From sequence record OZ346158.1: a stretch of DNA of 64,000 nucleotides; one strand, 5' to 3'. The stretch is from a phage. Positions 60,743-64,000 of the stretch are shown in pieces. The notes under the pieces are model-generated. The model did no database searches. It was not told where the DNA came from and was given only the letters and a program-made list of their open reading frames with translations. Each line of letters opens with the position of its first letter. Position 1 is the stretch's first letter. The position numbers and the translations under genes are program-made.

Positions 60743-60817
60743 GCCCTGTTAGCTTAGTGGATAAAGCAGCGGCCTTCTAAGCCGTTGACACTGGTTCGAG
60801 TCCAGTACGGGGTGCCA
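60743..60817 (+). tRNA. tRNA-Arg (anticodon UCU)
   Basis: Hand-folded cloverleaf: acceptor gccctgt/acggggt, anticodon loop cuUCUaa, T-loop ttcgagt, encoded CCA. Confidence 0.85.
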
Positions 60818-60821
60818 AATT

Positions 60822-60908
60822 GGGGAGTTATCCCGTAGAGGTAGCGGTGTAGACTGTAAATCTATTGTCATTGCGACTCGGGTGGTTCGACTCCACCACT
60901 CCCCACCA
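60822..60908 (+). tRNA. tRNA-Tyr (anticodon GUA), long variable arm
   Basis: Acceptor ggggagt/actcccc, anticodon loop ctGTAaa, T-loop ttcgact, CCA. Confidence 0.85.
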
Positions 60909-61022
60909 AATTTATATTTTTAGATGCATAAATAATACAGATAATGGCATTGATATTTATCGTCGTTTATACTAGTCACTAACTGCTCGAAAATCAGTGT
61001 CATTATCAGTATAATTTATAAA

Positions 61023-61113
61023 GGAGGGTAGGGAGCAATGGTGCTCAAGCGGTCTTGAAAACCGTCCCGTTGAGGATGACTCGATGATGGTTCGATTCCA
61101 TTACTCTCCGCCA
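61023..61113 (+). tRNA. tRNA-Ser (anticodon UGA), long variable arm
   Basis: Acceptor ggagggt/actctcc, anticodon loop ctTGAaa, T-loop ttcgatt, CCA. Confidence 0.8.
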
Positions 61114-61211
61114 CATTGTTGACCTTGTAATTAAGCGAAAGCCGGAAGCAGAACCGGATTATCAAATGTTACAGTCGTCATCGCCGACTAGCAACATGGT
61201 CAACATACTGA

Positions 61212-61308
61212 GCTAGGTAAGCCCTTTGGCAAGGGCGAGGATTTTTAATCCTGAAAATAGACGAGGTAGTCGTTGAATACATAGGTGGTTCGATTCCATC
61301 ACCTAGCA
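61212..61308 (+). tRNA. atypical tRNA-like gene (possible tRNA-Lys UUU with about 30-nt variable region)
   Basis: Perfect 7-bp acceptor gctaggt/acctagc, D-arm gccc..gggc, T-loop ttcgatt; anticodon arm imperfect; 97 nt. Confidence 0.4.
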
Positions 61309-61315
61309 CCTTTTT

Positions 61316-61388
61316 GCTGATGTAGCACAATCGGTAGTGCAATTGATTTGTAATCAATAGGTTGTAGGTTCAAGTCCTGCCATCAGCA
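61316..61388 (+). tRNA. tRNA-Thr (anticodon UGU)
   Basis: Acceptor gctgatg/catcagc, anticodon stem attga/tcaat, loop ttTGTaa, T-loop ttcaagt. Confidence 0.85.
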
Positions 61389-61392
61389 CCAA

Positions 61393-61467
61393 GGCCCTGT
61401 AGCTGGAAGGTTCAAGCAAGCGACTCATAATCGCCAGACGGTGGTTCAATTCCACCCAGGGCCACCA
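61393..61467 (+). tRNA. tRNA-Met/Ile2 (anticodon CAU)
   Basis: Acceptor ggccctg/cagggcc, anticodon loop ctCATaa, T-loop ttcaatt, CCA. Confidence 0.85.
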
Positions 61468-61478
61468 AATAGTAAATA

Positions 61479-61555
61479 CTCCGCGTAGCTCAGCTTGGTA
61501 GAGCGCCTGATTTGGGATCAGGAGGTCGAGTGTTCGAATCACTCCGTGGAGACCA
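61479..61555 (+). tRNA. tRNA-Pro (anticodon UGG)
   Basis: D-arm tagctcagcttggtagagc, anticodon loop ttTGGga, T-loop ttcgaat, CCA. Confidence 0.85.
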
Positions 61556-61871: not shown

Positions 61872-61976
61872 GTATTAGTCTCCTTTTAGTTAGTTTCGAT
61901 CTATTTAGGTTACTCAATTTTAACCCGCCCCGTTAGCTGTATAGCTGCGGGGTTTTTTCGTTTCTGGAGCCTTAAA

Positions 61977-62375
61977 ATGATTTCAGGTTTAACATGGCTG
62001 AGTAGGTATAGAGGGATTATAAAAGGTTTAGTTTTTGCAGCGGCTATAGGTACAGCTTATCTTGGGGCCGTGTATTGGTTTAACTCTAAGCTTAATGAAG
62101 CCTACCAAGAAGGTGTGTTAGCAACAGAGTTGAAGTGGGAACGGATCCTTGATCAGCAACAAAAGCAGGCCGACAAAATTAAAATGGGCCACGCAGAGGA
62201 GGTTAAAAACCTTGAAAAATCCCTTTCTGATCTACAGGATAAATTAAATATAGCTGAGAGGGCAGGTAGAGAAAAGCAGATTATCTACCTCCAGTCACCT
62301 GAAGGCAAGAAGTCAACACTTCCTGATCAGCTTATAGATATTTATAATGAGAGTATCAATCAGGAGGATCAATGA
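61977..62375 (+). CDS. i-spanin (Rz-like)
   Basis: N-terminal TM LVFAAAIGTAYLGAVYWF then coiled-coil periplasmic domain; next gene is a lipoprotein. Confidence 0.6.
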   Translation: MISGLTWLSRYRGIIKGLVFAAAIGTAYLGAVYWFNSKLNEAYQEGVLATELKWERILDQQQKQADKIKMGHAEEVKNLEKSLSDLQDKLNIAERAGREKQIIYLQSPEGKKSTLPDQLIDIYNESINQEDQ

Positions 62376-62659
62376 GAGTTGCTACACTGTTTATTGTGTG
62401 CTTGTTATTATGTGGGTGTGCAACCAGCGTTGAGAGAGAATACAAGATTGACCCTCCTGATGTAGGAAGGTTGATTGTTAAACCCCCGGAAGGTGCCATG
62501 AAACCACCTGCTAAAGCTATGCCTTTGAAGAAAGGTGCGCCAGATGCAGTGAATTCTGGCATTATGAGGGATAATAATCTGTCTTGTAGCAATGATAGAG
62601 CTAAATTGATCATTTTGCAAGACTATATTAGAACACTTTTTCCAAAGGAGAGAGGTTAA
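62372..62659 (+). CDS. o-spanin (Rz1-like outer-membrane lipoprotein)
   Basis: Lipobox LLLCGCA, Pro-rich mature region; start overlaps i-spanin stop. Confidence 0.65.
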   Translation: MRVATLFIVCLLLCGCATSVEREYKIDPPDVGRLIVKPPEGAMKPPAKAMPLKKGAPDAVNSGIMRDNNLSCSNDRAKLIILQDYIRTLFPKERG

Positions 62660-63084
62660 TGTCTAAGATTTACGGACCGTGTTCTGAAAAGCAGAAGATG
62701 ATCCTAGAAAACGATGCAGATATTTTGGTAATCGGCGGTGCCGCAGGGTCTGGCAAGTCGTTCCTCTTGCAATTGATGCCACTTAAAATTATTGATGACC
62801 CCCACAGCTCTGTGGTTATGTTCCGAAGAACAACCCCACAGTTGGAAGGTGAGGGTGGATTATGGCCTAAAGCAGTAGCTATTTATAGTGATCTGCCTGA
62901 AAACATTAAGCCAAAGTTTAGAGAGAAGGATCATAAGTTCATTTTTCCACGGTTTGATCCGAACACTGGCAAGTGGGATAGAAGCAAAAAGGGAGCTGTT
63001 GTAAAATACTGCCACATGGAGTATGTACAAGATAAGCTTAACCATCAGGGGCTTGAGTACACCATGGTTTGCTTCGATGAGGGT
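62659..63084 (+). CDS. terminase large subunit, exon 1 (ATPase N-terminus)
   Basis: Walker A GGAAGSGKS, Walker B MVCFDE then G-stop at intron border. Confidence 0.8.
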
Positions 63085-64000
63085 TAATTTGTAGCTCTCG
63101 TAAAACCTCCCTAATTGCGGGGAAATCTTTATTATTGACACCACCAACCTGTCATGGTAACATGACAGAGGCTTCGAAGAGAGATCGAAGGTATGGTAAC
63201 AGTGTGTTAATTTAGATAATCCGCAGCGAAGCATCCGAGAGGATGAACGTTCAACGACTAGTCGAAAGACGTAGAATCAAGCGATTCGAAACGGGAGGGT
63301 GAATGTGTAATACTAAGAAATGTATGGATTGCCAAAGAGTTCTACCTATTGATGATTTCTTTTTATCATCTAAGAGCAAGGATGGATACTCAGGTACATG
63401 CAAGGAATGCTATATGTACTACAGGAAGGGTGGATCTCGTAAAAACAAAAATATGGTTAAGAGAGATGATGCAGCATTGTTTATTCAAGACTTGCTGAAG
63501 AAAGGTGAACTTTTTGAATGCAAATCTTGTCATGAAAGTATGCTCGCTGATAGTTTTTACACAAAACGTGACTATGGTAAAGTATATCTGGTTACGAACA
63601 GGTGTAAGATGTGTGAAAAGTTTTATCAGATTGAGAAGAAATTTCACATAACAAAAGATGAATACTATCGTCTACTCTCAGATCAAGATCATAAGTGTGC
63701 CATTTGTAGAATATCCCTTGATGAGTATAGGACGCAAGGGTATAGAGATTTCTTTTGTGTTGATCATGACCATAAAACTGGTGCTGTAAGAGGGTTGCTT
63801 TGTGATAAATGCAACAGAGCTTTAGGTTTCTTCCAAGAGGATGAGGAAACTATTCTTAGAGCGGCAGAGTATTTACACATTCATAAGATATAGTCTGGTC
63901 TGCATGGAGACATGCAGCTGCCTGAAAATGGCGGGGCAAGACTAGCGACCTTGCCCGAACATAAACGACACAATTCGAATGGGAGCAGATAGACTACCTG
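63085..64000 (+). mobile_element. Group I intron in terminase large subunit gene (3' end beyond window)
   Basis: P-like aattgcgggga (63106), Q-like aatccgcagc (63220), R-like gttcaacgactagtcg (63250); contains endonuclease ORF; shares the 15-mer taatccgcagcgaag with the polymerase intron. Confidence 0.7.
63303..63893 (+). CDS. intron-encoded endonuclease (Endo VII / HNH-like)
   Basis: Zinc fingers CMDCQ..C and CVDHDHKTGAVRGLLCDKCN core. Confidence 0.8.
   Translation: MCNTKKCMDCQRVLPIDDFFLSSKSKDGYSGTCKECYMYYRKGGSRKNKNMVKRDDAALFIQDLLKKGELFECKSCHESMLADSFYTKRDYGKVYLVTNRCKMCEKFYQIEKKFHITKDEYYRLLSDQDHKCAICRISLDEYRTQGYRDFFCVDHDHKTGAVRGLLCDKCNRALGFFQEDEETILRAAEYLHIHKI

Follow-up and report, generated by a model that had tools for sequence, protein, structure and literature searches.

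The interrupted terminase gene

We analysed a 64,000-nucleotide (nt) stretch of phage DNA (sequence record OZ346158.1), hereafter the window, close to the end of which a group I intron with an endonuclease gene of its own interrupts the gene for the terminase large subunit (TerL). Judged by sequence comparison, the window is part of the genome of an rV5-like Escherichia coli myophage (Vequintavirus): megablast matched a 2,101-base query (61900–64000) to 122 phage records, the closest being Escherichia phage nomo (Vequintavirus), with 99.0% identity over the full length. TerL starts at position 62659, and the open reading frame (ORF) 62659–63087 encodes a 142-amino-acid protein with the C-terminal end ...MVCFDEG, which matches the Pfam family Terminase_6N (PF03237; E 1.1e-5, 25.6 bits, cut-off 22) and in which the Walker A motif GGAAGSGKS and the Walker B motif MVCFDE can be read directly. 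The locus contains the following features:

62659–63084, + strand: TerL exon 1, 142 codons (ORF; Pfam Terminase_6N; junction set against the intron-less phage nom)
63085–63967, + strand: group I intron, 883 nt, IA2-like, with an in-frame TAA at its 5' end and the omega-G, 63967, at its 3' end (Rfam RF00028; exact excision restores TerL)
63303–63893, + strand: predicted homing endonuclease ORF, 196 amino acids, endonuclease VII (Endo VII) motif (Pfam PF02945, PHROG and PDB sequence matches, motif residues)
63968–64000, + strand: start of TerL exon 2, ACA CAA TTC GAA TGG GAG CAG ATA GAC TAC CTG, encoding TQFEWEQIDYL (33 nt, 11 codons, clipped by the window end; continuation in phage nomo)

Phages nom and FV3 encode an uninterrupted TerL of 515 amino acids, and alignment to them places the intron at 63085–63967. 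Exon 1 ends in ...GAT GAG GGT, its final base being the 5' splice-site uridine (U63084), and exon 2 begins with ACA CAA TTC at 63968, so that the insertion lies between codons Gly142 and Thr143, one codon past the Walker B glutamate. With a slash marking the junction, the spliced sequence reads ...GATGAGGGT/ACACAATTC..., and the intron-less sequence at the same site reads ...TTCGATGAGGGCACGCAGTTCGAA... (also given as ...TGCTTCGATGAGGGCACGCAGTTCGAATGG...). When the nomo exons were joined by excising 63085–63967, the predicted TerL was identical to that of nom at 515 of 515 positions; the full spliced protein is the annotated TerL of nom and FV3, an ATPase of the Terminase_6N class. An intein was considered as an alternative kind of insertion and was ruled out by the in-frame TAA at the first intron codon and by the RNA structure of the insert.

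A preliminary description of this DNA, made from the letters alone, had placed a group I intron with an Endo VII-type ORF in TerL, directly behind the Walker B motif, and the Rfam and Pfam matches and the 515/515 spliced identity all support that proposal. The terminase continuation that it expected downstream is indeed present, in frame, both within the window and in the 99%-identical nomo. Its placement of the 3' exon beyond the window has to be corrected, as exon 2 begins at 63968, 33 nt inside the window, and the 3' splice site lies inside as well.

Anatomy of the intron

The Rfam group I intron model RF00028 aligned over its full length with 63075–63917 of the window (48.7 bits, E 4.3e-11, gathering score 50). 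The ORF-less allele of the same intron in phage magaca, whose record matches parts of the 2,101-base query at 98.4% identity, reached 84 bits against the gathering score of 50. No group I intron was reported when the whole window was scanned with Rfam at the gathering threshold, and permissive scans of the whole window found two introns only, one in TerL and one in the polymerase gene, both just below threshold. We attribute both sub-threshold scores to ORF insertions, as shown by the ORF-less alleles of relatives. The structural elements of the TerL intron are as follows:

63079–63099, + strand: P1, GAGGGU/UA (63079–63086) with the internal guide UAGCUCUC (63092–63099) (cmscan alignments; local fold -8.8 kcal/mol)
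63106–63111, + strand: P3 5' strand CCUCCC, partner GGGAGG at 63293–63298 (Rfam alignment; 6-bp pairing read from the strands)
63113–63122, + strand: P element AAUUGCGGGG (Rfam alignment)
63113–63231, + strand: P4–P5 domain, comprising the P element, a branched P5 extension (63122–63219), Q with the P4 3' strand, and a 15-mer taken up below (Rfam alignment)
63218–63227, + strand: Q element AAUCCGCAGC and P4 3' strand (Rfam alignment)
63232–63245, + strand: P6 hairpin CAUCC-GAGA-GGAUG (identical in the ORF-less JLBYU08 polymerase intron)
63249–63260, + strand: R element and P7 5' strand GUUCAACGACUA (Rfam alignment)
63261–63270, + strand: P7.1, GUC-GAAA-GAC (local folding)
63274–63287, + strand: P7.2, GAAUC-AAGC-GAUUC (local folding)
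63293–63298, + strand: P3 3' strand GGGAGG, doubling as Shine-Dalgarno sequence of the endonuclease ORF (Rfam alignment, coordinates)
63301–63310, + strand: P8 5' strand GAAUGUGUAA, forming a 10-bp stem with UUACACAUUC at 63873–63882 (local folding)
63873–63882, + strand: P8 3' strand UUACACAUUC (Rfam alignment)
63885–63895, + strand: S element and P7 3' strand AAGAUAUAGUC, in which UAGUC pairs with GACUA at 63256–63260 (Rfam alignment)
63900–63917, + strand: P9 hairpin with GAGA loop (Rfam alignment, local folding)
63934–63956, + strand: P9.1 hairpin (local folding)
63900–63967, + strand: P9–tail region, with the 3' tail running to the omega-G 63967 (Rfam alignment, coordinates)

The P, Q and R-like elements that had been noticed after ...MVCFDEG in the preliminary description were thus all found, and S was found in addition. 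Both splice-site hallmarks of group I introns are present, namely the wobble pair U63084·G63094 in P1 and the guanosine (G63967) at the intron 3' end. The P5 extension folds at -28.4 kcal/mol, and P2 is missing from the Rfam alignments of both the window intron and the ORF-less allele. Subgroup IA2 is marked by two additional hairpins, P7.1 and P7.2, which separate the P7 5' strand from the P3 3' strand; both are present here and indicate an IA2-like intron, an assignment made by inspection and without a subgroup-specific model. Compensatory changes were looked for by inspection of a few helices, rather than by a full statistical covariation test: P4 pairs GCGGGG with CCGCAG in the window, and GCUGGG with CAGCAG in phiKZ-like and Vibrio phage D148 introns, and P6, compared across six introns, is always a hairpin but differs in sequence.

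Allelic states and exon markers

In a survey of approximately 113 Vequintavirus records in the INPHARED phage collection, a number that includes duplicate RefSeq/GenBank entries, about 30 records had the TerL intron with the ORF, about 23 had a 319-nt ORF-less form of the intron (for example magaca and rV5), and about 58 had TerL without an intron. The endonuclease ORF is therefore carried by about 30 of the approximately 53 intron-bearing genomes and by none of the intron-less ones. Scans of IMG/VR with the junction sequence added only four extra loci, so the population counts rest on INPHARED.

The exons flanking the insertion site differ in step with the intron. Three synonymous changes separate GGT/ACA CAA, found with the intron, from GGC ACG CAG, found without it, in all nine loci that were read directly (9/9), and the intron-less records listed were all consistent with GGC ACG CAG, none of them matching the spliced junction at more than 97.5%. 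The change from GGC to GGT is required, because it supplies the splice-site U, and the other two changes, both in exon 2, fit either co-conversion or target-site protection. Pairing in P10 was ruled out as the cause of the two exon-2 changes, since both exon types pair about equally (3–4 bp) with the guide region.

Approximately 18 records in the same comparisons are named 'Campylobacter phage' (MG0656xx; labelled as phages of C. jejuni). Both in TerL and in the polymerase gene, they are 97–100% identical to rV5-like coliphages, which suggests mislabelled hosts or contaminating phages.

The distribution of alleles, together with the splice junctions, bears on whether the insert is spliced at all. 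An endonuclease cassette could conceivably split TerL into two polypeptides that reassemble without any splicing, as in the precedent of the NrdA protein of Aeromonas phage Aeh1, split by mobE. Several GenBank records do list two separate 'terminase large subunit' coding sequences (CDSs), the downstream ORF being ATG-initiated, and the paper on Pectobacterium phage CB7 (PMC7344957) has one intron-associated HNH insertion that is retained in the mRNA. However, a complete ribozyme core is kept in about 53 genomes, among them those with the 319-nt ORF-less form, which would otherwise have no reason to persist, and the boundaries fall exactly after a U and after a G, with the frame restored and 515/515 identity. 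An unspliced break would moreover lie inside the ATPase core, one codon past the Walker B glutamate, and the downstream ATG-initiated ORF of nomo starts about 40 codons into exon 2, so that conserved residues would be lost. We therefore consider an unspliced, split terminase very improbable.

The endonuclease gene in P8

Pfam, PHROGs, sequence matches in the PDB and published work agree on the identity of the 196-amino-acid ORF, which can be considered settled. Its Pfam match is to Endonuclease_7 (PF02945; E 2e-21, 76.1 bits, cut-off 23.6), its PHROG matches are to endonuclease VII families (best E 3e-33), and its matches among solved structures are Hpy99I (E 1e-5) and T4 Endo VII (E 6e-4). 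The catalytic and zinc residues are intact (C132xxC135, D154-H-D-H157 and C167xxC170-N171), and the N-terminal part is Cys-rich, with further CxxC pairs. F-CphI of phage S-PM2 is among the tblastn homologues (30.6% identity). The 2018 study from which the definition of the catalytic motif is taken includes, among its intron-encoded entries, an Endo VII-motif protein from Escherichia phage 2 JES-2013, and it indicates that proteins embedded in introns in this way are homing endonucleases (PMC6083498). Over the 2,101-base query, endonuclease ORF included, the JES2013 record and the window are 97.9% identical. On these sequence matches the nested ORF is an Endo VII-motif homing endonuclease, for which site-specific cleavage is predicted.

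The ORF is tightly interlaced with the ribozyme. Its AUG lies inside the P8 5' strand and its body occupies the P8 loop; at the other end, the final codons run through the P8 3' strand into the S element (the P7 3' strand), where the UAG stop is located. Alleles lacking the ORF have a short hairpin as P8, and in those with the ORF this hairpin has given way to the ORF and a new 10-bp stem, GAAUGUGUAA with UUACACAUUC. Where ORFs reach into the core, tight control keeps them from interfering with folding (Hausner et al. review, PMC3984707). Here the endonuclease takes its ribosome-binding site from the P3 3' strand and its AUG from P8, and the RNA can therefore probably either be translated into endonuclease or fold into the ribozyme, but not both at once.

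A different role for the protein, as a Holliday-junction resolvase or as a packaging cofactor of the type of the HNH/Endo VII terminase helpers, might be suspected from the name of its Pfam family, which is taken from the T4 resolvase, and from the HNH proteins cited in the CB7 paper (PMC7344957) as stimulating terminase. Yet the ORF is missing from about 80 of the approximately 113 otherwise near-identical, viable phages, and is thus dispensable, and copies at least 95% identical to it occur in this intron only (30 records), the next relatives being less than 50% identical. The likeness to T4 Endo VII is limited to the region of the catalytic motif (query residues 117–177), the Cys-rich N-terminal part being the protein's own, and the JES-2013 intron-encoded protein has been grouped in the F-CphI endonuclease clade and not in the resolvase clade (PMC6083498). 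A resolvase or cofactor in place of a homing endonuclease thus appears extremely improbable to us.

Proposed mechanism

Taken together, these data make it very likely that the insert is a mobile IA2-like group I intron (with P7.1 and P7.2, and without P2) that carries an Endo VII-motif homing endonuclease and sits in Vequintavirus TerL after Gly142, and for which we infer both splicing and homing. Transcription would run through the intron, and a translating ribosome would halt at the in-frame TAA formed by the first three bases of the intron; such stop codons stall the ribosome and let the intron fold (Hausner et al. review, PMC3984707). The ribozyme would then fold, with the internal guide GCUCUC pairing with the exon bases GAGGGU, a guanosine cofactor would attack after U63084, and the exons would be ligated after the omega-G63967. 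By sequence comparison, removal of the intron gives an mRNA encoding the normal 515-amino-acid TerL. During a mixed infection, the endonuclease would cleave TerL alleles that lack the intron, close to where it inserts, and repair off the intron-bearing genome would copy the intron and the flanking exon markers into the cut allele. The F-CphI family and the distribution of alleles described above are the grounds on which we infer this homing step.

Some observations weigh against this interpretation. The window copy of the intron scores 1.3 bits under the Rfam gathering score, a shortfall that we ascribe to the inserted 590-nt ORF, since the ORF-less allele passes easily. The P10 helix that the 3' exon could form is weak, at about 3–4 bp by reading of the bases. 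In the literature we found no published splicing or cleavage experiment on the TerL intron or its endonuclease, and the TerL intron of phage CB7, for which splicing is proven, is a different insertion, 6 nt upstream.

Relation to known systems

Phage introns are known to favour terminase and polymerase genes, the catalytic motifs of which are the usual targets of such elements, and the TerL intron of the rV5 group has been noted before: the rV5 genome paper contains a section headed 'Introns in terminase' (Kropinski et al. 2013, PMC3606486). In rV5 (RefSeq NC_011041, ORF64ABC) the same ribozyme occupies the same site of the same gene in its 319-nt ORF-less form. It differs from the window in having no Endo VII ORF at this site and in having a second TerL intron, with an HNH ORF (ORF 65), further downstream, and its TerL is annotated as a three-piece join. 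The position of that second intron lies beyond the window, and phage nomo, 99% identical to the window, is without it. MaxBurger (Bas54) has the same intron and ORF, and its record already joins the TerL CDS and labels a 'putative homing endonuclease'. Joined TerL CDSs are found both in the rV5 RefSeq record and in the GenBank records of the BASEL collection (e.g. MZ501093), the intron boundaries of which were annotated via comparative genomics (PMC8594841).

The catalytic motif of the window endonuclease, CX2C...DHDH...CX2C-N, is common to the F-CphI family (PMC6083498). F-CphI itself is free-standing, adjoins the psbA intron and takes part in 'collaborative homing', whereas the window endonuclease gene lies inside its intron, and its target site and cleavage are predicted. 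The T4 introns in td, nrdB and nrdD (sunY), with I-TevI, I-TevII and I-TevIII, are likewise located in conserved enzyme genes and contain an endonuclease ORF nested in a peripheral loop. They are of subgroup IA2 and have an optional distribution among relatives. The core of the TerL intron is 71.6% identical to that of the T4 nrdB intron at the DNA level over 109 nt. The T4 introns differ in their host genes and in their endonucleases, which are of the GIY-YIG or HNH type, and the window intron, unlike those of T4, has its ORF in P8, the ribosome-binding site in P3 and the stop codon in P7.

In Pectobacterium phage CB7 (Certrevirus), reverse transcription PCR has demonstrated that the introns in TerL and in the polymerase gene are spliced, and for the TerL intron Sanger sequencing did so as well (PMC7344957). 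CB7 belongs to the same subfamily (Vequintavirinae), and its TerL intron, which carries an HNH ORF, interrupts the Walker B region of the same gene. It is, however, located two codons (6 nt) upstream of the window intron (GVD/EGTQF as opposed to FDEG/TQF) and has another core and another endonuclease. The 6-nt offset and the different core rule it out as the same insertion, and thus as experimental support by way of orthology; since site, core and endonuclease all differ, we regard it as an independent insertion. With the CB7 and Vequintavirus sites two codons apart, independent introns cluster at the Walker B codons.

A closer counterpart was found in phage Av-05 (Avunavirus, NC_025830), whose TerL intron has the same site (...FDEG/, GGT/) and a P6 of similar type; its sequence is diverged from that of the window intron (73.7% identity over 171 nt). 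Within 1381–2511 of the examined locus, the Av-05 TerL gene also has an intein-like insertion of about 230 amino acids in the Walker A loop (GGAAG/CLSKDH...VVTGN/SGKS).

The polymerase intron and the question of shared lineage

The second intron of the window interrupts the polymerase gene:

1444–2285, + strand: polymerase intron, inserted at YYH/DE (RF00028, 38.9 bits, E 3.9e-8; junctions from the intron-less phage EduardKellenberger)
1584–2090, + strand: HNH endonuclease ORF in P6 of the polymerase intron (PHROG HNH, E 9e-38)

ORF-less alleles of this intron score 72.5 and 64.7 bits with RF00028. A 15-mer common to the two introns had led the preliminary description to suggest that two introns of one lineage invaded two essential genes. 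The 15-mer, TAATCCGCAGCGAAG, does have exactly two copies in the window, at 63217–63231 and, one base further along than first described (1548–1562), at 1549–1563. In dinucleotide-preserving shuffles it matched 0.08 times on average, and none of 100 shuffles reached two matches. It consists of the conserved Q element and the start of P6, and 13–14 of its last 14 bases are matched in the introns of Av-05, a phiKZ-like phage and Vibrio phage D148. Because near-copies thus occur in introns of unrelated phages, the 15-mer is not a private signature and says little on kinship.

More telling is a 37-nt exact run that the TerL intron has in common with the ORF-less, window-type polymerase intron of phage JLBYU08. 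It spans the whole variable P6 hairpin and is confined to Vequintavirus genomes (51 records). Only 15 nt are common to the two introns of the window itself, because the HNH cassette replaced exactly the 14-nt P6 hairpin. Together, the 15-mer and the 37-nt run could be taken to mean that the two introns are direct sister copies, one of which recently transposed to a second essential gene. Beyond a stretch of about 78 nt, however, their identity falls to 43–67%, with many indels, and in blastn searches the TerL intron scored highest with a phiKZ-like intron (102 bits, 208 nt) and next with the Av-05 TerL intron (90 bits), ahead of every polymerase allele, the best of which was that of JLBYU08 (79 bits, over 78 nt only). 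The Vibrio D148 intron followed with 72 bits, the T4 nrdB intron with 55 bits and the rV5-type polymerase intron with 28 bits. The endonucleases are also unrelated (Endo VII in the TerL intron, HNH in the polymerase intron) and lie in different loops (P8 and P6, respectively).

In a comparison by segments, the flanks of the JLBYU08 polymerase intron proved 87–95% identical to the rV5-type polymerase intron, the centre of which is not TerL-like, whereas for three segments of the JLBYU08 centre the identity to the TerL intron was 67%, 100% and 80%, as compared with 37%, 73% and 33% to the rV5 type. Part of the one-lineage suggestion thus holds, for the 37-nt run and the centre of the polymerase intron, and part does not, the flanks being of rV5-polymerase type and the TerL intron as a whole lying closer to introns of other phages. 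From these comparisons, a mosaic produced by recombination would account for the likeness better than descent of the whole intron, and direct sister copies seem unlikely. Tentatively, we propose that group I introns co-resident in Vequintavirus genomes may swap ribozyme modules. The window-type polymerase intron would then be a chimera, with polymerase-type flanks (P1–P4 5' strand and P8–P9) and a P5-Q-P6-R-P7.1 centre from the TerL-intron lineage, and each endonuclease cassette would later have replaced one hairpin, HNH the 14-nt P6 and Endo VII, with its own 10-bp stem, P8. This scenario is possible, but we would not yet call it probable.

Polymerase introns fall into at least two core types (rV5, and window/JLBYU08), which have near-identical flanks and differ in P5, P6, P7 and P8. 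P7 covaries between the types, GACUA pairing with UAGUC in one and GGCCA with UGGUC in the other. The polymerase region (900–2700) is an insertion hot spot, with intron-less, ORF-less and HNH-bearing states among relatives. In VB-EcoM-WM, 241Ecol014PP and JEP1 the region spans 2.2–2.9 kb in 2–4 pieces, which suggests extra introns or endonuclease genes in these phages.

Genomic surroundings

Upstream of TerL lie a tRNA cluster (60743–61555), an i-spanin gene (61977–62375) and an o-spanin gene (62372–62659). Inside the tRNA cluster, a 99-nt tRNA-like gene (61212–61310, + strand) scores only 35.5 bits with the Rfam tRNA model; ARAGORN reports it as 'tRNA-???' with a four-base anticodon (atcc), and it is called 'tRNA-OTHER' in GenBank relatives.

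Implications

The TerL intron and its endonuclease are an ordinary system that has already been described, in the rV5 paper, in joined GenBank CDSs and in the 2018 paper (PMC6083498). Their annotation is nevertheless of practical value, as many GenBank records still give two 'terminase' fragments and a 'recombination endonuclease VII'. The locus is correctly modelled as a single spliced TerL plus a homing endonuclease, and automated pipelines should join 62659–63084 to 63968 onward. The locus also offers a textbook snapshot of the homing cycle, with empty sites, ORF-less introns and ORF-bearing introns in a single phage genus, together with linked exon markers. The sole mildly new point is that the two introns are related as a mosaic, a hint that introns residing in one genome may recombine.

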